Of a DNA stretch of 64,000 bases, positions 6,601 to 50,095 are shown piece after piece. Numbering within the stretch: position 1 is the first letter of the stretch; each line of letters opens with the position of its first letter. The stretch is from the IMG/VR virus record IMGVR_UViG_3300021142_000006. The stretch is one strand, 5' to 3'. This DNA comes from a virus (taxonomy: Duplodnaviria > Heunggongvirae > Uroviricota > Caudoviricetes). The notes below the pieces were generated by a model. That model saw only the letters and a program-made list of their open reading frames with translations, was not told where the DNA came from and ran no database searches. Both the position numbers and the translations under genes were made by a program.

Positions 6601-7601
6601 TAACTAAATTTATAACCTTTTGTTTTTTTTCTTTCACCACGAATAACCCTATAAATCATTTCTGATGTTATTTCTAATTCGGTTGTTGCGTCATGTATAT
6701 TTTTAAACTCTTTAATTAAAACACCATTTAAACCATACATTTTAACTGGTTTCAGAACTGGTGTTCTATCATACGCACCACGATTATGTTCCTTTAACGT
6801 TTGAAATATTTCATATTTCCTACTCAATCTCAAACCATCCGAATTATTATACATATTATTTTTTATAAAATCCAAATCTTCAAAAGAATAATATAATAAT
6901 TTACATATACAACCTTTTTCGGATTTATATTTGGTATATATAATTTTAGTATCAGTTAACCCAAATGAATTAAACTTTTCTTTTAATTTTAATATAAAAT
7001 TTTCAGAACCAATAATTGAAAACCTTAAAATACCTTCTTTGTTCATTTTTGATATTGAACCATCGCCATCAAAAACACCTCTAACAAAATCCCAAAAATA
7101 ATCATCATTAATATTAGGATATTCACAATCAAAAGATTTATTATTTTGTAATCCTAAACAATTTAAATCAACACACATTTTCTTAGATGGTATCTGTAAA
7201 CTAAATCTTTTATATGTTTTATTAGTTCTTTTATCATAGACATCATATTCACTTAACTTATGAGTGGAATTTAATTCTTTTCTAACGATATCAACTAATT
7301 CATAATCTTTAGATGTTAATACTACCTTAGACCATTTTTTACTAATATACCCATCTGATAATAACAAGCCTAAAACATATGCTTTAGACGATGAATTTAT
7401 ATTTTCAAAAAAAGTAATATTCATACTATTTTTACAGTTTTTAGAATTAAAATTTTGTTTTTTAGTTTTTATATTATTTTTAATTAAAAATTTTCTGACA
7501 CCAGAAGCGGTATAGCCCAAAATATCACCAACTTCTTTTAATGTTTTATTTTCCTCAAAATAAATTTTTTTAACCTCTTGTATTTCTAATTTCTTTTTCA
7601 T
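6597..7601 (-). mobile_element. free-standing LAGLIDADG homing endonuclease with C-terminal NUMOD1-like domain
   Basis: YVLGLLLSDGYI and FVRGVFDGDGSI motifs; KPVKMYGLNG..KEF...GYKFSY tail. Confidence 0.88.
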
Positions 7602-10696: not shown

Positions 10697-12118
10697 TTAT
10701 TTTTTATTTAATTTATTATGATATGATATATAATCAAAATTATTTTTAGTTGATTGAAACCAGTAATCGCCTAATCTCGAAAAACCGCTAAATTCTTTTA
10801 TCCCTTGACCTATATTCGATGGATTATCATATTGTTTAACACAACCAGGTACGTAAGCATATGTATATAAATCTGGAGATAGTTTCATAAATAACCAATC
10901 AATACCCATACTCATATGTACATGAGTATCAAGTAAATCCAATATTCTTGGTAAACTTTTTTTATTTACAATATATGCATAAGTACTCCAACAACCATAT
11001 GTTCTCACAATATAATCAACATCTGTTTTCTCCACATCTGTTCCCTTTTTACATGAACATTTTTGCATATCTGGATGATGTCCAATTTTATGCCATTCAG
11101 CTGGAATATGATATGTGCCACCTAACCAAAAAACATCCCATTCATGGGTATTAAGAAAATTCTGAATATCACTTAATCGATCCATGAAATCATCACAAAA
11201 AATTAAATCATCTTCCATAACTAATGCATGTTTATTTTGTTCTAATGCTTTTTTCATTACACCTACCTGTGAAAAATGACAACCTATAGCACCAGGTGTT
11301 CTATTTAACATCGTCTTAATTTTAACTAATGGTTGATCAACTTCGTTTGGTAATAAACCCTTAAATCTTATAGCTGATAGCCCAATTCTTTCAAGCTCTG
11401 AAACCATTCTATTATCCCTATCTTTTCTAACATCAAGATTAATATATGACGCATACGTTTCATCAAGTATATCTTTATTGGTTGTAATTAACTGATCTTT
11501 TCTTACATAAATCATACCCCATTTTTCTTTTCTATTAACATCAAAATCAAAATTAATATCATTCCATGATAACCATGTTAATTCATTTTCAAAATAGATA
11601 TCATCTTTTTCTTTAATTGAAAAATTATTATAACCAATATCTTGTAAATATTTTACAATAGCTTCAATATTTTCTTTATTTTCTTCTTCCCATTCAAAAC
11701 AAATCATGGTATTAGATAATAATTTTGTTAACCCTTTAATTACATTCAGTTCATAACCCTCAACATCTATCTTTATAAAATCAGGTATACCATATTTTTC
11801 TATAGCACTATCAAGAGTAATAGTATTAATAGGTATTTTTACATTCCAATTATGTTTATTAGAAAATCTTGAGTTTTTTATAAAATCTAAAGATAATGTT
11901 GATAATGTTTCAGAATTACAAATAAAAAAATCATTTATTCCATTATTATCTGATAATCCAGAGCTATCAATTATAACATTATCATTATCTTTATATATTC
12001 TATTTAATTTATTATTTAAATCTGGATTAGGCTCGAAAGCAACTACTTTATAACCAGAATTTAATAAAATATTAGTTTTTTGACCAATATTAGCACCTAT
12101 ATCAAAAGCAAGTTTCAT
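10697..12118 (-). CDS. FkbM methyltransferase fused to GT25-like glycosyltransferase
   Basis: FDIGANIG...KIDVEGYE, then YINLDVRKDR...GCHFSQ...VMEDD. Confidence 0.85.
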   Translation of the reverse strand: MKLAFDIGANIGQKTNILLNSGYKVVAFEPNPDLNNKLNRIYKDNDNVIIDSSGLSDNNGINDFFICNSETLSTLSLDFIKNSRFSNKHNWNVKIPINTITLDSAIEKYGIPDFIKIDVEGYELNVIKGLTKLLSNTMICFEWEEENKENIEAIVKYLQDIGYNNFSIKEKDDIYFENELTWLSWNDINFDFDVNRKEKWGMIYVRKDQLITTNKDILDETYASYINLDVRKDRDNRMVSELERIGLSAIRFKGLLPNEVDQPLVKIKTMLNRTPGAIGCHFSQVGVMKKALEQNKHALVMEDDLIFCDDFMDRLSDIQNFLNTHEWDVFWLGGTYHIPAEWHKIGHHPDMQKCSCKKGTDVEKTDVDYIVRTYGCWSTYAYIVNKKSLPRILDLLDTHVHMSMGIDWLFMKLSPDLYTYAYVPGCVKQYDNPSNIGQGIKEFSGFSRLGDYWFQSTKNNFDYISYHNKLNKK

Positions 12119-26238: not shown

Positions 26239-26257
26239 ATATTTAATTTAAATTTAG

Positions 26258-26330
26258 AGTACATGGATGGATTCGAACCACCGAATTGATACTTTGCAGG
26301 CACCTGCCTTAACCACTCGACCACATGTAC
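26258..26330 (-). tRNA. tRNA-Cys(GCA)
   Basis: GUACAUG/CAUGUAC, U73, loop CUGCAAA. Confidence 0.9.
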
Positions 26331-26356
26331 AAGTTTGTGTAGTATTAATAACTACA

Positions 26357-26387
26357 CAAAAGTAATAAAAGTTTTTAAATAAACAAA
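26357..26387 (-). promoter_or_regulatory. Bacteroidetes-type promoter upstream of tRNA-Cys
   Basis: TTTG-N19-TACTTTTG. Confidence 0.7.
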
Positions 26388-41830: not shown

Positions 41831-42302
41831 CTTGTATTTTCTTTTTGACGTTAGTTAATACTTCACCCAACCAGTTTGTTCCTTTCCAATTTTTTGGATC
41901 TTCAATACCATGATCTGTGTCATACATACCAATACCCCATATAGTATCCTTAGGTGATGCTTCAACAAACATACGGTCACCAGTTTCCAGCATTTCAGCT
42001 TTTAACTTTTTGTTTTGTGTGAACTTAGCATAATTTGCTTCAAACACATAATCCTTACAAACAGCATCCCACTTTTCCTTATTAAAGTTTTTAACTTGCC
42101 TACCAAGCTCTTTTTGGTCGAAAGGATGTGATTCTTCCATAATAAGATCAGCAGTATCCTCATCACCAAATAACATAGCTTTTTTGTACATCATATACTG
42201 TTCGCAACAGTTATACGTTACTCCATCAATTACCATATTAGCACGTTTCCATTGAGAAAATGTACCATTCCAAAAAAACACATATTTGTCCGTTATTCTC
42301 AT
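41805..42302 (-). CDS. NADAR (YbiA-like) hydrolase
   Basis: FSQW...EQYMMYKKAMLFGD..KELGRQV..VEASPKDTIWGIG..GTNWLG. Confidence 0.92.
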   Translation of the reverse strand: MRITDKYVFFWNGTFSQWKRANMVIDGVTYNCCEQYMMYKKAMLFGDEDTADLIMEESHPFDQKELGRQVKNFNKEKWDAVCKDYVFEANYAKFTQNKKLKAEMLETGDRMFVEASPKDTIWGIGMYDTDHGIEDPKNWKGTNWLGEVLTNVKKKIQDEDSRNAK

Positions 42303-42424
42303 AAAATTTGATTATAAAACAAAATTACAAAAGATTACTGATATAACCAAATATTTTCAAAAATAAGAAACCAGAAAATGCATAATAAACTTAATTGGTA
42401 TATTAAACATAATCTGGTTTATTG

Positions 42425-42495
42425 TGCGCCATGAAGGTACTGACCCTTCTTCCACGAGTTAAAAGCTCGTTACTTCACCTTAAAGCTTATAGCGC
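42425..42495 (-). tRNA. tRNA-Lys(UUU), atypical T-loop
   Basis: ACGAG-CUUUUAA-CUCGU; T-loop GUCAGUA. Confidence 0.83.
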
Positions 42496-42503
42496 ATTAT
42501 TAG

Positions 42504-42543
42504 TGACCCCACAGGGACTCGAACCTTGATCCACAGCTTAGAA
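42504..42543 (-). pseudogene. 3' half of a disrupted tRNA-Arg(UCU)
   Basis: UUCUAAGCUGUGGAUCAAGGUUCGAGUCCCUGUGGGGUCA; its acceptor strand pairs with the 5' fragment at 43034..43054. Confidence 0.8.
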
Positions 42544-42583
42544 CTTTTACTTCTAATCCATATATTTATAAATAAAGAAATAT

Positions 42584-42958
42584 ATGAAAGAAAAATTATG
42601 TTCAAGATGTAAACAACCAAAACAAGAGTCTGACTTTTATCATAGAAAAAGTAGAAAAAATAGTGCATTTGGTATGTGTAAAGTATGTTTTAACTCTTAT
42701 TGTGTTCAACGATGGATTGAACGCAAAATAGACGCTATACATTACAAAGGTGACAAATGCGTAGATTGTTCTACTTCTTATCCAGAATATCCATATGTTA
42801 TCTTTGATTTTCACCATTTAGATCCAAATAAAAAAGATATGGATTGGACTAAATTAAGATTACAATCTTGGGATAAAATAACGGATGAACTTGATAAATG
42901 TGTTTTACTTTGTTCTAACTGTCATCGTATACGGCACCATAACGAAATAAAATTTTAG
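42584..42958 (+). mobile_element. HNH endonuclease gene inserted in tRNA-Arg
   Basis: CSRCK..C..C finger; CVDC..FDFHHLDP..CVLLCSNCHRIRH; antisense to the array. Confidence 0.88.
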
Positions 42959-43029
42959 TGCTCCCAAGAGGATTCGAACCTCTATGAAGACTTTAGAAGA
43001 GTCTCGTCCTTCCATTGAACGATGGGAGC
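42959..43029 (-). tRNA. tRNA-Arg(UCU), intact
   Basis: GCUCCCA/UGGGAGC; AGACU-CUUCUAA-AGUCU. Confidence 0.9.
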
Positions 43030-43033
43030 ATAA

Positions 43034-43054
43034 TATCCATTGAGCTATGGAGCC
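43034..43054 (-). pseudogene. 5' fragment of the disrupted tRNA-Arg
   Basis: GGCUCCAUAGCUCAAUGGAUA. Confidence 0.75.
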
Positions 43055-43106
43055 ATTTGTTTTACAAAGATAAGTAATTATTTTTTACTTACCAAATTTA
43101 TTTTTA

Positions 43107-43202
43107 AAAATTACCTCCAGTTAGATCAATGATACGTTCATGTCTACATTGCCTTAATTATTCCGTTAGACAAACGTGTACGGAAGCTGGTTTAGCAATT
43201 TT
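43107..43202 (-). ncRNA. candidate three-way-junction RNA with kissing loops
   Basis: CCAG/CUGG, UUCCGU/ACGGAA and CAAUG/CAUUG stems; the two loops are complementary. Confidence 0.65.
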
Positions 43203-43207
43203 TTTTG

Positions 43208-43279
43208 TACCCCCTGAGAATTTCGAAATCCCAACCTCTTGGATGTAAGCCAAGCGCTCCGCCTTTGAGCTAAAGGGGT
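43208..43279 (-). tRNA. tRNA-Val(UAC)
   Basis: ACCCCUU/AGGGGGU; loop CUUACAU. Confidence 0.87.
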
Positions 43280-43302
43280 ATATATTTGAGATAAACAAAT
43301 TG

Positions 43303-43374
43303 TACCGATGTGGGATCTCGAAACCCAAACCTATCCCATATGAGGGGATCGCTCTTCCTTTGAGCTACATCGGC
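43303..43374 (-). tRNA. tRNA-CAU (elongator Met or Ile2)
   Basis: GCCGAUG/CAUCGGU; AUCCC-CUCAUAU-GGGAU. Confidence 0.82.
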
Positions 43375-43377
43375 ATT

Positions 43378-43640
43378 TGCTGGTATAGCCGCCCATCACC
43401 AGCGTTGTGCTTGCTTTTATAAAGCACTTTATCCGATTCTCCCCTAAGCCCTCAGACGATGCGACATTTCAACGATTAATTACTTCGTTTACTATAAGAG
43501 TTACAGATTTCTCTGTCGTTTTTAATAAGGTTAGGAATAGAGGCTGTTTGGTGCGCATTAGGGGTGTCTCTTCAAACTGTATAACTCAGTCAACCAAACC
43601 TTAGACACTTCATCTATCAACGCTTTTATGCATATTCCTA
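43378..43640 (-). ncRNA. candidate multiply pseudoknotted ncRNA (~260 nt)
   Basis: at least seven complementary segment pairs, several crossing; GC higher than the genome background. Confidence 0.62.
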
Positions 43641-43715
43641 TGGAGCGGTAGAGAGGAATCGAACCTCCGTCTCCTACTTGGAAGGAAGGAGTAATAGCCA
43701 CTATACGACTACCGC
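43641..43715 (-). tRNA. tRNA-Gly(UCC)
   Basis: GCGGUAG/CUACCGC, U73, CCA encoded. Confidence 0.92.
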
Positions 43716-43723
43716 AAATTTAA

Positions 43724-43924
43724 TTAAGCATATGAATCATTATCTTTTTCATCAAAACCGCTTTCCCATGAATGTATTAATTTATTTAAATCATCATAAA
43801 TTTTTATGAGTCCTTTTTTAATTTTTTTAGCGAAACCATGTGCTTCGTGTTTATAATTAAATTCGGATTCTCTATGAGTCAATACACCTTTTTCCCAGGT
43901 ACTTACTTTTACTTTGTGTGACAT
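43724..43924 (-). CDS. hypothetical protein
   Basis: 66-aa ORF. Confidence 0.55.
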   Translation of the reverse strand: MSHKVKVSTWEKGVLTHRESEFNYKHEAHGFAKKIKKGLIKIYDDLNKLIHSWESGFDEKDNDSYA

Positions 43925-43932
43925 ATTCTTTT

Positions 43933-44988
43933 TTATTTAAAATATTCTAACCAAATATCTTTGGTCTTATTAGTATAAATAGTTAGTTCTTTTTGATTCT
44001 TTGTAACATTCAAATTTGGTGATTGATGTGTTAGTAATAAAGCCGCATATATTTCTTCAGTTTGTGTTGCTTTTGCTACAAACCAACTATCAATCCATGG
44101 TATTTCTTTAGATCCAACAAGAGGTACGCCTTGACTTATAATATCAGCACCAACTATGTTAAACGTTTCAGTTATTGAAACTTGCATACCAATATCCATT
44201 TGTGCACAAATATTTGAAAAATCTTCTCTATCTTGCCACCCATGGTTTATTAATTGATGTCCTTTATCAGATAATTGTGAAAAAAATCCAATAAGATTTC
44301 TCATAACAGGTTCACCTTTTTGTTCAACCCTACCACCGTTAACATGGAACCTCAATTTTTTATTGATTGAGTCTGCAAACTTAACAGCAGCGATTGCTTG
44401 CATTATATGATTTTTTAAAGGTCTAACTGCACCAAAACAACCTATATCAATTATATCTTTATCATTTGCTGTATAAGTTTTTGTCTTATAATCTTGTGGA
44501 TAAAAATTTGGTAAATATATAATTCTATTATCCTTTTCAAAATCATCCCAATTCATTTTATACCCAAGATAAAATTTTATCTCATTTAAAGTTCTTGGTG
44601 AATTAACAGCAATTAAAACATTAGGATATGAAATATAATCACCTAACCAATCCATAGCCATTCCCTCGTTTGCAAGAAATGGAATTTCACTATGTAATCT
44701 AATTATCCATTTAACACTTGGATGTAAGTTACAAAGAACTGAGAACTTTGTTGGTACAACCCATAACGCTTCAATAATAACGTGTGTTGGTTTGAACTCA
44801 GTAACTTCTTTATCAATACCATTATTATCAATCACAACAACAATTTTTGTTTCAACCCCACAATCCAAAAGCATTTGATACATGAAGGATGCTGAATTAT
44901 ATAGACCTGTTGTTAATCCAATTTTAGAATCTTTAACTGGATTAAAATCCTCTTTTCTTTTTAAAATAAAAAGCACTCTACATGACAT
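43933..44988 (-). CDS. GT-B (GT4-like) glycosyltransferase
   Basis: GCFGAVRPLKNH...QVSITETFNIVGAD..GVPLV; true start is probably MSCRVL because the longer ORF overlaps tRNA-Gly. Confidence 0.75.
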   Translation of the reverse strand: MSCRVLFILKRKEDFNPVKDSKIGLTTGLYNSASFMYQMLLDCGVETKIVVVIDNNGIDKEVTEFKPTHVIIEALWVVPTKFSVLCNLHPSVKWIIRLHSEIPFLANEGMAMDWLGDYISYPNVLIAVNSPRTLNEIKFYLGYKMNWDDFEKDNRIIYLPNFYPQDYKTKTYTANDKDIIDIGCFGAVRPLKNHIMQAIAAVKFADSINKKLRFHVNGGRVEQKGEPVMRNLIGFFSQLSDKGHQLINHGWQDREDFSNICAQMDIGMQVSITETFNIVGADIISQGVPLVGSKEIPWIDSWFVAKATQTEEIYAALLLTHQSPNLNVTKNQKELTIYTNKTKDIWLEYFK

Positions 44989-45002
44989 ATTATTTATTGT
45001 TT

Positions 45003-45077
45003 TGGAGCAGTAAGGCAGAATCGAACTGCCGTCCTCGCCTTGGCAAGGCGATGTAATAGCCACTATACGACTACTGC
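45003..45077 (-). tRNA. tRNA-Gly(GCC)
   Basis: GCAGUAG/UUACUGC, U73, CCA encoded. Confidence 0.92.
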
Positions 45078-45080
45078 AAT

Positions 45081-45333
45081 TGAGGCGATGCTTCGGTACG
45101 CCTCGGTTCCCTATTCACCCATTTACAGTGACCCCAGTTACCTCTGCTTTTTTATTCTTTTGCTACTAATCAGTTACCAGCTGACCAAGAATTTCAGAAT
45201 CTGTAGATTCAACTCCTTACGAAGAACGCCATGGGTAGCGTTTTTTTTAGTTAAAAACATCTTAACCCAATGTTGTGAGGCTTTCGCCAGGGGAATCCCA
45301 CCATCCATTCGTTTTTTAAAAGGGAATGGAACC
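45081..45333 (-). ncRNA. candidate multi-hairpin ncRNA (~250 nt)
   Basis: GGUUCC/GGAACC closing stem, GGC-GAAA-GCC, GAAUCU/AGAUUC, UCAG/CUGA, terminal GAGGCG/CGCCUC. Confidence 0.55.
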
Positions 45334-45338
45334 TTTTG

Positions 45339-45461
45339 TCATCCTGGATGGATTCGAACCACCGACACACAGTTCTACATATAAAATTTTCACTGCGGAA
45401 CACATTCTCATCAGAATGCTCTTTTTTTTTACCGTTGCTCTACCAACTGAGCTACAGGATG
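45339..45461 (-). ncRNA. tRNA scaffold (Phe-like body) with 57 nt in place of the anticodon loop
   Basis: CAUCCUG/CAGGAUG, GCUC/GAGC, ACGGU/ACUGU, GGUGG-UUCGAAU-CCAUC all intact. Confidence 0.75.
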
Positions 45462-45672
45462 AAATTCCCCCATCTTGAGATTATGGATGAGTAGTTATTT
45501 CGGTTTTCTATTTCTACAAAACCTGCGAGGCATCCCTCATTAAAAGTGCCAACACTACTGGGAAGATTTGTGTGTCATCTTTAACCCCAAGCCGTCCCAC
45601 TCACGCTGACTGACGGTCTGCGAAATCATTTTTAATCTTGATTCAAAGACTCTGAGTATCTCTAACTCATTG

Positions 45673-45793
45673 CGGCGAGATCAGGATTCGAACCTGAACC
45701 TTTTTCTTAATAGGAAATTGTTAGATAGTTAATTTGCAGCATTCATCCACACTGGATGATTCTTTTTTAATGCTGCCGTTACACCATCTCGCC
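45673..45793 (-). ncRNA. tRNA scaffold with the anticodon arm replaced by an insert
   Basis: GGCGAGA/UCUCGCC, D arm and UCAGG-UUCGAAU-CCUGA intact; insert carries the A-tract/hairpin/CUGCAAA module. Confidence 0.72.
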
Positions 45794-45852
45794 TTGTTAT
45801 ACAATAGTAATAAACATTGTTAATAAAAGCAAATTATTATTGTAATTTTTTT

Positions 45853-45927
45853 TGGAGGACACACTCAGAACCGACCTGAGAACTCATGCTTACAAGGCAA
45901 GTATTTTTCCAGCTAAACTATGCGTCC
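45853..45927 (-). tRNA. tRNA-Thr(UGU), atypical T-loop
   Basis: loop CUUGUAA; T-loop GUCGGUU; CCA encoded. Confidence 0.83.
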
Positions 45928-46061
45928 ATTACAACTTTTAAATTATCCCCAGAGTTGTGAACTGTGCTGGCATACGATCCAGAAGTTTAGTGGCTTGTTC
46001 TCGGATGATTAATCCGATATTAGACTTTCTTATCTTCGATCCCTTGGCCTTTGGGCTTTTG

Positions 46062-46134
46062 TAGCGAACCCAGGTAATGCTCCTGGTATCTCCAGGTTAT
46101 GAGCCTGGCGAGATAACTTTTTCTCTAATTCGCA
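46062..46134 (-). tRNA. tRNA-Met(CAU), initiator-like, atypical T-loop
   Basis: U1.U72 mismatch; CCAGG-CUCAUAA-CCUGG; T-loop GAGCAUU. Confidence 0.75.
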
Positions 46135-46246
46135 ATGTTTAAAAAGGTTAGTAGTTGTCTTAGAGTTACGGAGTCTGTAATTAACATATGACCGTTTCGA
46201 CCACGTTCTCGGATCAGGAGTTTTGTGCGTAACATACTACTATTTG

Positions 46247-46319
46247 TAGCGAGAGAAGGACTCGAACCTTCGACCTCACAGGTTATGAGCCTGGCGAGCT
46301 ACCGCTGCTCTATCTCGCA
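46247..46319 (-). tRNA. tRNA-Met(CAU), initiator-like
   Basis: U1.U72 mismatch; loop CUCAUAA; UAGAGCAGCGGUAGCUC D arm. Confidence 0.85.
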
Positions 46320-46411
46320 ATATAATATCTTAATAAAGTTAAATATGCACGTTAAAGATGTAAAGTATATTATGCAAAAATAGGTTTATTGAGGTGTTTT
46401 GCATATTATAA

Positions 46412-46531
46412 TTATCTTTTTCGTCTTTGTCTTAGAGCCGAACCAGCAAGTGTTTTTGTTGTTTTACTCGTTGATTTACTCTTTAACGCTTTGCTTGCTT
46501 TTTTTGCAACACGTTTGGATGTTCTTGCCAT
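46412..46531 (-). CDS. 39-aa highly basic peptide (not in the ORF track)
   Basis: MARTSKRVAKKASKALKSKSTSKTTKTLAGSALRQRRKR, hand-translated. Confidence 0.62.
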   Translation of the reverse strand: MARTSKRVAKKASKALKSKSTSKTTKTLAGSALRQRRKR

Positions 46532-46545
46532 AATATATTTTTTTG

Positions 46546-46666
46546 AGCTGACGGATAGAATCGAACCACCGACTCTGGCTTGGAATGCATATAACTGTTA
46601 ATTGCGGTATGGAATCTCATCAGATTCACTTGTTTTAACAGCGTGTTACCATTACACTACATCAGC
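46546..46666 (-). ncRNA. tRNA-Gly(UCC)-like scaffold with a ~50-nt anticodon insert
   Basis: GCUGAUG/CGUCAGC, U73; residual UUCCAA-GCCAG 3' anticodon half; insert hairpin GAAUCU-GAUG-AGAUUC. Confidence 0.75.
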
Positions 46667-46758
46667 ATTGAAATTCATAGGTTGTCAACCCACCGTGTTT
46701 TTTGTCCATCATACTATTGACGAGATAGTACTTCTCATATTTACAGGGTTATGAATTT

Positions 46759-46835
46759 TGGCGGAGATGAAGGGATTCGAACCCTCGACCTTCAGCGTGA
46801 CAAGCTGACATTGTAACCAACTCTACTACACCTCC
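46759..46835 (-). tRNA. tRNA-Asp(GUC)
   Basis: GGAGGUG/CAUCUCC, G73, CCA encoded. Confidence 0.92.
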
Positions 46836-46905
46836 GTATTAAAATTAAAGGGTTAAAAGGTTCTGCTTTCAACAAGGTGCGCTTAACTTACTTCCTTTAA
46901 TTTTG

Positions 46906-46978
46906 CTCTTCCAGCAGGATTCGAACCTGCGACCAACAGATTAACAGTCTGCTGCGCTACCAGCTGCGCTATGGAAGA
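46906..46978 (-). tRNA. tRNA-Asn(GUU)
   Basis: UCUUCCA/UGGAAGA, loop CUGUUAA. Confidence 0.93.
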
Positions 46979-46987
46979 ATTTTTAAG

Positions 46988-47061
46988 TGTACCCTACAGG
47001 GTTCGAACCTGTGACCCCAACATTATGAGTGTTATGCTCTAACCAGCTGAGCTAAGGGTAC
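46988..47061 (-). tRNA. tRNA-CAU, probably Ile2 (lysidine type)
   Basis: GUACCCU/AGGGUAC; Ile-like body UAGCUCAGCUGGUUAGAGC; loop CUCAUAA. Confidence 0.8.
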
Positions 47062-47213
47062 ATAATAACGTATTTGCTATGATAGGTTATGTTATTCCGT
47101 TTAATTTGGTAATAACCGAATAATTAAATATTTTATTCCCTTTGTCACCTGTTACCATCAGATAAGGCTGTTTTCAAATATACACACCTATCAAAGCAAA
47201 TTTCTTTATAAAG

Positions 47214-47286
47214 TGGTACCGACTGGAATCGAACCAGGGACACCGAAATTTTCAGTTTCGTGCTCTACCAACTGAGCTACGGCACC
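47214..47286 (-). tRNA. tRNA-Phe(GAA)
   Basis: GGUGCCG/CGGUACC; loop CUGAAAA. Confidence 0.93.
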
Positions 47287-47366
47287 AAATTCGGAATGGG
47301 GTTTTAGCTTGAATCATTAAAAGTGAATTGCTTAAAAATTTGCTGGAACCATTCCCATTTGTTTTA

Positions 47367-47398
47367 CAAAAGTATGAAGTTATTTTCAAACTTCCAAA
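47367..47398 (-). promoter_or_regulatory. Bacteroidetes-type promoter inside array 3
   Basis: TTTG-N20-TACTTTTG. Confidence 0.68.
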
Positions 47399-47521
47399 CT
47401 TTTTTTTATTTTTTTTTGTTTATCCCAATATGTCAAAGAACATTAATTATAAGACCCCTTCGAGTGTTTTAAGACTTATTTAGCCAGACCTAAGTCCTAT
47501 ACTTATCTCTTATAATATTTG

Positions 47522-47595
47522 TGTGACAGGTCGGTTTCGATCCGACTACCCCTTCGCTCACAACGAAGCGCTCTCCCAATTGAGCTACAGTCACC
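47522..47595 (-). tRNA. tRNA-His(GUG)
   Basis: encoded G-1; CUUCG-UUGUGAG-CGAAG; T-loop AUCGAAA; A73. Confidence 0.83.
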
Positions 47596-47612
47596 ATGTT
47601 AAAGAACTACAT

Positions 47613-47643
47613 AAAAAAACCCCAGCTTTTTGTGCTGGGGTTT
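47613..47643 (-). terminator. attenuator terminator of tRNA array 3
   Basis: AAACCCCAGC/GCUGGGGUUU stem plus U-tract about 17 nt before tRNA-His. Confidence 0.88.
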
Positions 47644-47667
47644 CTCATTTATAACTTTTACTTTCTA

Positions 47668-47751
47668 TTAGTAATCGCATAAGAAACCCCTGTCAGTGTG
47701 ATCATTCACTCTGCCAAACGTCATTCCTATATTTTTTATTTGCGATTTCAT
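47668..47751 (-). CDS. leader peptide 3 (27 aa, MKSQIKNIGMTFGRVNDHTDRGFLCDY)
   Basis: hand-translated; contains the antiterminator strand 47679..47690. Confidence 0.84.
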   Translation of the reverse strand: MKSQIKNIGMTFGRVNDHTDRGFLCDY

Positions 47752-47789
47752 CGAAAGCTTAAAATTTTATGTGTTAATAATAATTAGTA

Positions 47790-47820
47790 CAAAAGTAATA
47801 AAAGTTTTTCAAAAAACAAA
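47790..47820 (-). promoter_or_regulatory. Bacteroidetes-type promoter for leader/array 3
   Basis: TTTG-N19-TACTTTTG. Confidence 0.78.
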
Positions 47821-47854
47821 TCTTTTTTTATATATTTTTTATTATAATTTGTTT

Positions 47855-48310
47855 TTAGTGTTTTTTAACGATTTTATCGGCTGCATGTGTAGCTGCCCAA
47901 GCGTGTGGTTTACCTGCTGCTTCATAACCCATTGATTTTGCGTAACCGATACCAGCATCATATAACTCATGTGATTTTTCGTTAGGGTTTGAGTTATAGT
48001 CAACGTGTATCGTAATTTTTCTATCAATACCTTTTAAGGTATCAGCAACAATAACTGACTTATTAACTTCTTCCCATAACCTCATATAGTTATTAGGTTT
48101 CATTGATTCAGTTTCTTTTTTGTTGATGATGTGACCACCTTTACCTGGTTCATACATACACACACTAACAGCGTAATCAATTTTCTTGTCACGTGTTTGT
48201 GAATCACAACCAATATAGATTTCCGCATTTGGTTTGTCAGAAATCCAGTTTTCTACATACTCTTTAAGGTTATGGATAACCATACCTTGTCTTGTTCTGA
48301 ACTTAGCCAT
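47855..48310 (-). CDS. RNase H-fold protein (YkuK/DUF458-like)
   Basis: IYIGCDSQ...RLWEEV...IHVDYNS..KSH..GY....GKPHAWAATHAAD. Confidence 0.82.
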   Translation of the reverse strand: MAKFRTRQGMVIHNLKEYVENWISDKPNAEIYIGCDSQTRDKKIDYAVSVCMYEPGKGGHIINKKETESMKPNNYMRLWEEVNKSVIVADTLKGIDRKITIHVDYNSNPNEKSHELYDAGIGYAKSMGYEAAGKPHAWAATHAADKIVKKH

Positions 48311-48499
48311 TTCAATAAATTTTTACAAATGTAGTAAATAAAACTAATAAAACAAATTAATCTTGTTTTTCTTTTTCCACATTTTGTTTACCACACCATG
48401 GACAAAACCATTTTTTCTTTTCGATAGGTGCATCACCTATTGACCACCATTTGTTACAGAACGTACATAGAAAGTGTGATAGATGCTCTATTGACCTAA

Positions 48500-50095
48500 T
48501 CATATATCAAAGGTCGTAAAACCGATTTGATTATTTTTATCTTTTACAAAAGATATATGTTGTGCTCTACCATTTTTATGTATGATTACATGTGACTGTA
48601 ACCATGAGCTTGGGCCTGAGTTATAACCCATTCTCAATTTGGTTGATGTACCGACAGCTAATGCACCATCTTTTCTTCCTGGTGAATGATAGTGGCCTAC
48701 AACAATTTTTGTATTCAATGTTCTGTATTGATTAAGAGAGCCTCTTGAACCATTTGTACCTTGGTCACCATGTTGCCCAAGTTCCCATCCATTAACTTTA
48801 TATGATTGATTTCTTCCGAGTGTTACGTATTTAGGATATTTTGAGTTAATTATTTCAGGTATTACACCTTTGATTTTATACATATCCTTTTCATATTGTT
48901 CCATGAGCATTTGTGAATACTTCATGTATAGTTTTGAATTCTTGGTTGTTGGTTGTTTTTTCCAATCTTCATTCTTTAACCATCTATCAAGAAAATCATC
49001 ATGATTACTTCTAACAATAACAACATTTTTAAATTTTTCAAATGTTGCAAGATTGAGCATCATTTCATCTATTTCTTTTTCAAGGGAATTCTTACCATGT
49101 ATTTCTTTTGCGTATTGTACAAAAGGATCTTTCATTTCATGATGATTAATTGATGTGCCGTCAAAAACATCATGCAGAATTACATGTTCTGGTGTAACTT
49201 TATCAAGTAACTCCATTGTTTTATTTATAACATCATTGTCATGATTTCCGTAATGCATATCACCAAAAACGATTGCGGACATTTCATTTATTTTGGTAAT
49301 GTTTCCAGAATCAACTTTATAGCATAAATCTTGGAAGGAACCAGATTTATCATCTGCTGTAACTTGTCTTACATAAAATGTTTCATCATCTTTTATTTCA
49401 ACAATAACGAATCCATATGTGTGATGAAATTCACCTTTTTTACCTGATTTAGAATCAGTATAATTCATTAGTGTTACCGAACCAGTTGTAACCATCATCT
49501 TTGGTTTACAACCTTCAAGTACAGGTATCATTTCTAATTGTACCTTTGGTGCACCAAATACACATGAATTGACACCACTTACACCTTGCATACCACTCAT
49601 AGGGTTTGTGGCTGTGGGTTGTATTTTAATGTCAGACATAATAGTTATATACTTGTGTATAGAGTGTCTACCAGCATCTAAATATGGTAACACATCATCA
49701 TGCCATGTATCATAGTCTTTATCAGTAAATACCGATGTTGGATTTTTATATCTACCAGCAATAACGTGGATATCAGCATCAATATATTCAGCATATGCTT
49801 TCATGTTGTTGAAAAACTTACTATGTACAGGTGTATCGTTTTGTGCCCATGTTATTAAAAATCTTTTCTTGGTTTTATCATGAACCCTTTGTTTTGCGGT
49901 TTCATATTGTTCAGATTCTACTTCAACTTTTTCTTTAAATCCCAATTTTTCTGAGCACCATTTTCTAACAGTCCTTTCCGATTTACCAAAAAGATCCATT
50001 AATAGTTTCATTCTTTCATCCCAACTTAATTCAGTATTCCAGTATATATTTCTGGCTTTTTCAATTTGTTCTGGCGTTACATCTTTAAACTTCAT
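48500..50095 (-). CDS. HTH + calcineurin-like metallophosphoesterase
   Basis: GKSERTVRKW; FGDMH, LHDVFDG, VRSNHD, GQHGD, VGHYHSP. Confidence 0.78.
   Translation of the reverse strand: MKFKDVTPEQIEKARNIYWNTELSWDERMKLLMDLFGKSERTVRKWCSEKLGFKEKVEVESEQYETAKQRVHDKTKKRFLITWAQNDTPVHSKFFNNMKAYAEYIDADIHVIAGRYKNPTSVFTDKDYDTWHDDVLPYLDAGRHSIHKYITIMSDIKIQPTATNPMSGMQGVSGVNSCVFGAPKVQLEMIPVLEGCKPKMMVTTGSVTLMNYTDSKSGKKGEFHHTYGFVIVEIKDDETFYVRQVTADDKSGSFQDLCYKVDSGNITKINEMSAIVFGDMHYGNHDNDVINKTMELLDKVTPEHVILHDVFDGTSINHHEMKDPFVQYAKEIHGKNSLEKEIDEMMLNLATFEKFKNVVIVRSNHDDFLDRWLKNEDWKKQPTTKNSKLYMKYSQMLMEQYEKDMYKIKGVIPEIINSKYPKYVTLGRNQSYKVNGWELGQHGDQGTNGSRGSLNQYRTLNTKIVVGHYHSPGRKDGALAVGTSTKLRMGYNSGPSSWLQSHVIIHKNGRAQHISFVKDKNNQIGFTTFDI

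Follow-up and report, generated by a model that had tools for sequence, protein, structure and literature searches.

A phage leader ORF listing the eleven amino acids of the tRNA array behind it as a probable transcription attenuator

The largest tRNA array of a virus of the class Caudoviricetes is preceded by a short ORF, leader 3, which contains a continuous run of codons for the amino acids served by the array and for no others. We propose, with a probability of nearly 0.8, that leader 3 acts as a ribosome-mediated transcription attenuator, with a host-type promoter on one side and the phage tRNA array on the other. By this means the phage probably raises its tRNA output when the listed codons are read slowly. 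A preliminary description of the same DNA had interpreted the leader as an attenuator, and our analysis supports this interpretation: the leader has every sequence-level feature of such an element, and these are kept, with compensatory changes, in nine homologues. The window analysed is the whole stretch of 64,000 nucleotides (IMG/VR record IMGVR_UViG_3300021142_000006); coordinates of the features are given in Table 1.

Table 1. Leader 3, its RNA segments and the adjoining tRNA array
Feature	Position	Strand	Description
Promoter motif	47790..47820	-	TTTG, 19-nt spacer, TAnnTTTG; motif scan; nearly invariant in an alignment of three relatives
Leader 3 ORF	47668..47751	-	27 codons and stop; start and stop kept in eleven syntenic homologues
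Roll-call run	47683..47739	-	Codons 5-23; only, and all of, the 11 array 3 amino acids
Segment 1	47715..47747	-	5' part of the ORF; predicted to pair with segment 2 if the leader is untranslated (MFE)
Small hairpin in the run	47694..47713	-	GUGA-loop-UCAC core
Segment 2	47677..47690	-	Antiterminator 5' strand, codons 21-25
Segment 3	47637..47648	-	Antiterminator 3' strand; overlaps the terminator 5' arm
Intrinsic terminator	47613..47646	-	Core stem 47640-47634 with 47626-47620; 7-nt loop; T7 tract 47619-47613
tRNA array 3	42425..47594	-	14 canonical tRNAs and two insert-bearing tRNA-like genes (ARAGORN, Rfam)
Internal promoter-like motif	47367..47398	-	5' of tRNA-Phe; motif scan
Internal promoter-like motif	43065..43096	-	5' of tRNA-Arg(UCU); motif scan

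Genomic setting and tRNA arrays

The window is AT-rich (G+C about 30%) and encodes a T5 A1-like DNA transfer protein at 48500-50095; Maribacter and Flavobacterium phages are the nearest cultured relatives. In INPHARED, DNA searches for near and distant relatives yielded no near-identical phage and only tRNA-level similarity. Public runs containing the stretch are labelled as freshwater or lake metagenomes. ARAGORN detected 28 tRNAs in the window, all on the minus strand and organized in three arrays plus singles.

The order of array 3, as determined by ARAGORN and Rfam, is His, Phe, CAU, Asn, Asp, CAU, CAU, Thr(UGU), Gly(GCC), Gly(UCC), CAU, Val(UAC), Arg(UCU) and Lys(UUU), the last of which (42425-42495) was detected by Rfam and relaxed ARAGORN only. 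The amino acids previously listed for this array stand, but its CAU tRNAs number four instead of three, and two tRNA-like genes with 50-nt inserts had been missed. A 1:72 mismatch and A11:U24 make the CAU tRNAs at 46061 and 46246 initiator-like; the two at 46987 and 43302 are of elongator type. Since there are two of the latter, the natural, if unproven, reading of their sequences is one Met and one Ile2 tRNA; alignment of the window CAU tRNAs with Ile(UAU) tRNAs of relatives did not tell Ile2 apart (46987 versus 43302).

Both insert-bearing genes lie on the minus strand (45339-45461 and 46546-46666) and score 45.9 and 41.1 bits, respectively, with Rfam. Their inserts are located in the anticodon arm and have in common a 5-bp hairpin (loop UGAUGA) and, 3' of it, CCGCA. 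ARAGORN guesses for these genes are weak (Tyr GUA; Gly UCC with intron). Comparable genes occur in relatives (L095 at 11612, L094 at 11842, L096 at about 11496-11608, and G001). Array 3 also contains, on the opposite (plus) strand, an HNH endonuclease ORF (phrog_2255, 2.7e-28; 42584-42958); such an ORF is likewise found amid tRNA genes of phage T5.

The spacer 3' of tRNA-His (47400-47520, minus strand) is conserved in L089, L093, G001 and L096. It contains a possible nested stem UUAUAAGA...UCUUAUAA around GACUUA...UAAGUC, together with the motif CTTTGACATATTGG, and matches no Rfam family. As CTTTGACATATTGG is found once in the window, it was ruled out as a repeated promoter.

The leader ORF and its codons

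Leader 3 is a short ORF with start and stop codons located between the promoter and the first gene of the array, and its codons match what the operon supplies. Codons 5-21 (47689-47739) read exactly as first described (ATA AAA AAT ATA GGA ATG ACG TTT and so on); this 17-codon run indeed covers all 11 amino acids of the array, and it extends to 19 codons by addition of Gly and Phe. GGA and GGC face tRNA-Gly(UCC) and tRNA-Gly(GCC), as had also been pointed out. With strict wobble pairing, the array tRNAs can read 14 of these codons in a row. The first codon that needs extended U34 reading is ACT; if such reading is allowed, all 19 are readable. Among codons 2-4 and 24-27 are some for Ser, Gln, Leu, Cys and Tyr, for which array 3 has no canonical tRNA. 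Codon choice follows the arrays as well: Ile is encoded by ATA in leader 3, which adjoins CAU tRNAs, and by ATT in leader 2, which adjoins tRNA-Ile(GAU).

Since the 11 amino acids account for 61% of residues in the long ORFs of the window, the run of leader 3 is, taken alone, the weakest among the three leaders. Probability of a run of at least 19 in a 26-codon peptide is 3.4e-4 and that of covering all 11 amino acids within such a run is 0.03, which gives a joint chance of about 1e-5 (3.4e-4 x 0.03); P is 2e-8 for leader 1 and 1.6e-8 for leader 2. A six-frame comparison of ATG ORFs with 20-60 codons (369 in all) shows that leader 3 has the longest array 3 run (19 codons; runner-up 15) and that leaders 1 and 2 are the single best ORFs for arrays 1 and 2, with runs of 16 and 13. 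On arrays other than their own the three leaders reach at most 9. Leaders 1 and 2 fit only their own arrays, and leader composition tracks array content across relatives (see below). The match of leader 3 is confined to a single frame (19/19 codons in the ORF frame versus 9/18 in each of the other two).

Low chance expectations and own-array specificity argue against an independent small gene that is followed by an ordinary terminator and matches the array by coincidence or shared codon adaptation, the array being served by its own promoters. Phage tRNA regions, e.g. that of T5, are often rich in small ORFs, and array 3 does contain internal promoter-like motifs, both of which would suit such a gene. 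However, none of the many small ORFs in the T5 tRNA region mirrors the adjacent tRNAs; T5 was therefore rejected as a precedent. We consider an independent gene very improbable, also in view of the position of the terminator and its complementarity to the ORF, described in the following section.

Predicted alternative structures of the leader RNA

The promoter motif TTTG-N19-TAnnTTTG, which we take to be the Bacteroidota promoter form, is also present 5' of leader 1 and of tRNA-Cys (by scan) and 5' of leader 2 (by eye). The tRNA-Cys locus (26257-26387, minus strand) has neither leader ORF nor terminator; a 21-nt hairpin separates its promoter from the tRNA.

Between the leader ORF and tRNA-His lies an intrinsic terminator with a 7-bp G+C core and T7 tract (-15.9 to -18.8 kcal/mol). 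On its strand, the region 42000-47900 has no other terminator-like hairpin. Its T tract ends 13 nt 5' of tRNA-His, and this gap holds no promoter-like motif, which speaks against an array served only by promoters of its own.

Pairing of 47690-47679 with 47648-47637, proposed in the preliminary description, was recovered in full (12 bp with one G.U pair). So was its overlap with the 5' arm of the terminator, which amounts to 4 nt within the G+C core and to 10 nt if the extended stem is considered. The predicted antiterminator duplex (-21.0 kcal/mol, z = -6.1 versus shuffles) excludes the terminator, and its 5' strand is within reach of a ribosome at the end of the ORF.

Folding predictions agree with three alternative states. 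In the full untranslated leader (MFE -49.5 to -50.2 kcal/mol), the 5' part of the ORF is paired with codons 21-26 and the terminator is formed as well; this protector (1:2) pairing is thus predicted to give termination without translation. When the 5' part is masked, as by a stalled ribosome, the antiterminator forms and the terminator is lost (-24.3). Masking of codons 21-25, which mimics a ribosome that has reached the stop codon, restores the terminator (-23.2). Terminator and antiterminator are predicted to be nearly isoenergetic; the outcome in this model would depend on kinetics. The small hairpin within the run is a possible polymerase pause hairpin. A hairpin of different sequence is found at the same place in the other clade of leaders.

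Models of amino-acid operon leaders and T-boxes from Rfam gave no match at gathering score over the window or at E up to 1 over 45080-47860. A match to the DUF2693 RNA model was set aside (26 bits versus a cut-off of 81).

The ORF, its codon match to the array and the alternative structures, along with their conservation and covariation, are derived from the sequence. From these we infer translation of the ORF, ribosome stalling, coupling to the polymerase and the share of the array past tRNA-His that relies on read-through. Transcription would start about 30 nt 5' of the ORF. If codons 5-21 are decoded fast, the ribosome would arrive at the ORF end and cover segment 2, the terminator would form and transcription would end 13 nt 5' of tRNA-His. 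If charged tRNA is scarce, any of the listed codons may be read slowly, so that the ribosome would stall upstream and break the 1:2 pairing. Segment 2 thus freed would pair with segment 3 and sequester the 5' arm of the terminator, and RNA polymerase would enter tRNA-His and continue through the array. Without translation, 1:2 pairing together with the terminator would lead to termination. Because the product sensed is the product made, such a leader would form a negative feedback loop on tRNA supply.

Homologous leaders

A scan with the degenerate pattern TFGRVNDH matched the leader in one IMG/VR contig (G001) and two metagenome contigs; the other six of eight metagenome matches were unrelated DNA, with tRNA absent on five. 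The gene upstream of the leader, encoding a PF04308 (RNase H-like) protein, is syntenic in relatives, and PF04308 homologues from the protein collection led to eight more usable contigs. A PF04308 pattern scan of IMG/VR gave no confirmed match, and loci retrieved via the T5 A1-like protein (L001-L011) have no adjoining tRNAs. The resulting set consists of eleven leaders from related uncultured phages, all in the corresponding position, and nine of them were folded; L102 was left out due to its different arrangement.

All nine folded homologues keep the ORF and the terminator and are predicted to form 1:2 pairing plus terminator if untranslated. Likewise, an antiterminator duplex is predicted in each of them (-16 to -25 kcal/mol, z = -3 to -6.5). 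The duplex sequences differ; each starts at codon 19-21 and shares at least 8 nt with the terminator arm. That the ORF 3' end can pair with this arm in each of the nine would not be expected of an independent gene. Alignment A1 displays compensatory changes in all three helices; for example, a TCGCA:TGCGA pairing motif of the window is, by eye, replaced by AAGCA:TGCTT in the A1 relatives. In the same alignment the promoter and the run are near-invariant, synonymous sites included.

This last feature would fit constraint at the RNA level, i.e. a switch in which the leader is not translated and its codon-like words pair with tRNAs, as in T-boxes, or bind a factor. Against this stand the match to the array in one frame only, a frame that every homologue keeps as an ORF with start and stop despite sequence turnover, and the lack of T-box or other Rfam matches even at E up to 1. 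Moreover, distant homologues swap codons and keep the amino-acid logic. An RNA-only or protein-binding switch is thus hardly probable, and we return to the translated leader.

Leader composition changes together with array content. Leaders of the window, G001 and L096 contain His and Val and no Glu; their arrays start with His and hold Val. L089, a partial array that was read with the leader of L092, fits the same pattern. In L097 and L098, array and leader alike include Glu but neither His nor Val. The His/Val/Glu swap may represent a single evolutionary event. Within leader codons 5-20, Gln occurs only in L097 and L103, which are the two arrays with tRNA-Gln. These two belong to different leader clades, and L098, sister of L097, has neither the Gln codon nor tRNA-Gln; Gln was gained twice, each time together with its tRNA.

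In the canonical arrays and partial arrays examined, the amino acid of every tRNA is present in the leader, with the exception of Met in L098 and L096, where it is represented by the start codon only. Isoacceptors are followed too: leader GGT accompanies Gly(ACC) in G001 and L089, GGC of the window accompanies Gly(GCC). L096 is a poorly fitting outlier, as its leader has Lys, Leu, Ser and Thr with no matching tRNAs in the 10 kb covered. A permutation test of leaders against arrays, limited to the five complete pairs, was underpowered and gave only 8 of 120.

These observations also bear on the signal. The same attenuator hardware might report general translation capacity or amino-acid charging (starvation, host shut-off, ribosome availability), with the 11-amino-acid leader acting as a broad probe. 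What leader-peptide attenuators respond to is charged tRNA, and the same stall would follow from a shortage of amino acids, as established for trp and his; a set covering 61% of residues would make a suitable probe. Nevertheless, a broad probe needs no partition such as that among the three leaders of one genome, each of which lists the amino acids of its own array only. Nor does it need to change with array content across relatives, or to choose between ATA and ATT and between GGT and GGC in step with the isoacceptors present. We regard such a general signal as unlikely and favour sensing of the tRNAs that the array supplies.

Internal promoter-like motifs and transcripts

The internal promoter previously noted at 47367 corresponds to a promoter-like motif found by our scan at 47398-47367. 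With this motif and that at 43096-43065, only tRNA-His is located solely behind the attenuator. Judging from these motifs, internal sites could feed most of array 3 independently of the attenuator. For the rest of the array, read-through may come on top of a basal supply. In the relatives L094 and L097, a promoter-like motif is situated directly 3' of the terminator.

In four lake metatranscriptome runs, contigs identical to parts of array 3 were found, among them 47016-47306 and 47283-47500. Jointly, these two extend from upstream of the likely start of the internal promoter (about 47360) through tRNA-Phe into the next tRNA; the contig 47283-47500, which reaches upstream of this start, is positioned downstream of tRNA-His. 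No metatranscriptome contig covers the protein genes at 47850-49000. Since contigs reach 5' of the internal start and the flanking protein genes are uncovered, they are consistent with polycistronic transcripts entering from the leader side by read-through, with the limit that they come without strand, ends or levels and that the leader itself is outside their coverage.

Exact contigs of much higher depth (about 30, far above the rest of the array) were found in three of the four runs at 45162-45354. This segment is the spacer from an insert-bearing tRNA-like gene to tRNA-Gly(GCC), and its transcript may be a stable structured RNA.

Similar leaders in other phages

The collected loci were subjected to an unsupervised scan for a small ORF followed by a terminator and at least three tRNAs. 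All three leaders of the window were recovered, together with leader-2 homologues (L097, L098). The design was further found in unrelated loci: L037 has QNPNPNQQP 5' of Asn-Pro-Gln-Pro-Gln-Pro, L077 has WEHLLEEV 5' of His-Glu-Val-Trp-Leu, and L028, L036 and L043 are additional cases. In L097, a class I aminoacyl-tRNA synthetase-like protein (PF00133, PF09334; 17456-18739) is encoded a few kb past the leader-2-type array.

G001 contains a second leader inside its array (L012, 8070-8150) with the run KHVKH just 5' of Lys-Lys-Val-His, so that Lys, Val and His are polled twice in that phage.

A leader-like ORF, unannotated so far, with the run YSYSCFSSWF and a terminator was detected in cultured Tenacibaculum phage Gundel_1 (NC_062747.1; L101), the candidate leader being at 6938-7000. 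It is followed by two tRNA-like genes, Tyr-like and Trp-like (whole region 6938-7205), and then by Phe, Ser, Cys-like and Ser. The Tyr-like and Trp-like genes, unannotated as well, are located upstream of the annotated Phe-Ser-undetermined-Ser cluster; their anticodon loops contain GUA and CCA, and their scores of 27.8 and 25.7 bits are both below the 29-bit cut-off.

Discussion

Attenuators responding to several amino acids are known: the ilvGMEDA leader contains Ile, Leu and Val codons and the thr leader contains Thr and Ile codons. Leader 3 shares with them a short promoter-proximal ORF with regulatory codons for several amino acids, and the protector (1:2), antiterminator (2:3) and terminator (3:4) segments among which the position of the ribosome decides. 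It differs in controlling tRNA genes instead of biosynthetic enzymes and in listing 11 amino acids once or twice each, in contrast to runs of one to three amino acids. Moreover, it belongs to a Bacteroidota phage, has a -33/-7 promoter and no Shine-Dalgarno sequence, and is similar to the ilvGMEDA and thr leaders neither in sequence nor by Rfam model.

With trpL and hisL, leader 3 would have in common that a stall at cognate codons leads to antitermination and that the untranslated leader terminates by default. Those leaders respond to a single amino acid and use charged tRNA as a metabolite proxy, whereas leader 3 would sense the gene product itself. The pheST operon, with its pheM leader, is another example of leader-peptide attenuation of a translation-apparatus component that acts on the cognate tRNA; its target is however a synthetase, for one amino acid, encoded by a cellular gene. 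In T-box riboswitches read-through is likewise set by tRNA status, but the T-box binds uncharged tRNA directly, without translation. Leaders 1 and 2 show the same plan of promoter, ORF, antiterminator and terminator and the composition of their own arrays. Leader 3 is distinguished from them by the largest amino-acid set and by internal promoter-like sites downstream.

To our knowledge, all described attenuators regulate genes for amino-acid biosynthesis or aminoacyl-tRNA synthetases. Genes downstream of leader 3 are neither of these, they are tRNA genes. In searches of openly accessible full texts, no description of leader peptides before tRNA genes was found. Ribosome-mediated attenuation itself is known; its application, by means of a leader peptide, to tRNA genes would be new.

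We tentatively extend this reading, at odds slightly short of even, to Bacteroidota phages in general, including giant uncultured ones and Gundel_1. Each tRNA array of these phages would be a self-contained feedback loop, in which a leader tests exactly the codons served and opens transcription if any of them is slow. This would amount to on-demand tRNA replacement and to the first case of leader-peptide attenuation of tRNA genes.

The purpose of phage tRNAs is debated, with codon compensation and evasion of tRNA-targeting defences as opposing views (PMC10264068). How phage tRNA output is set has likewise been debated for decades. A leader that reports the decoding speed of the served codons would couple tRNA supply directly to demand. 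It would extend ribosome-mediated attenuation from metabolic genes to tRNA genes, with a single leader able to poll 11 amino acids. The design is simple, recurs in many phage genomes and appears to be present in a cultured phage-host pair (Gundel_1 and Tenacibaculum sp. AHE14PA), and the leader could find use as a natural sensor part that responds to tRNA availability. If our wider reading is true, tRNA output of these phages would respond to codon-usage mismatch, to decay of host tRNAs in infection or to host anticodon nucleases.
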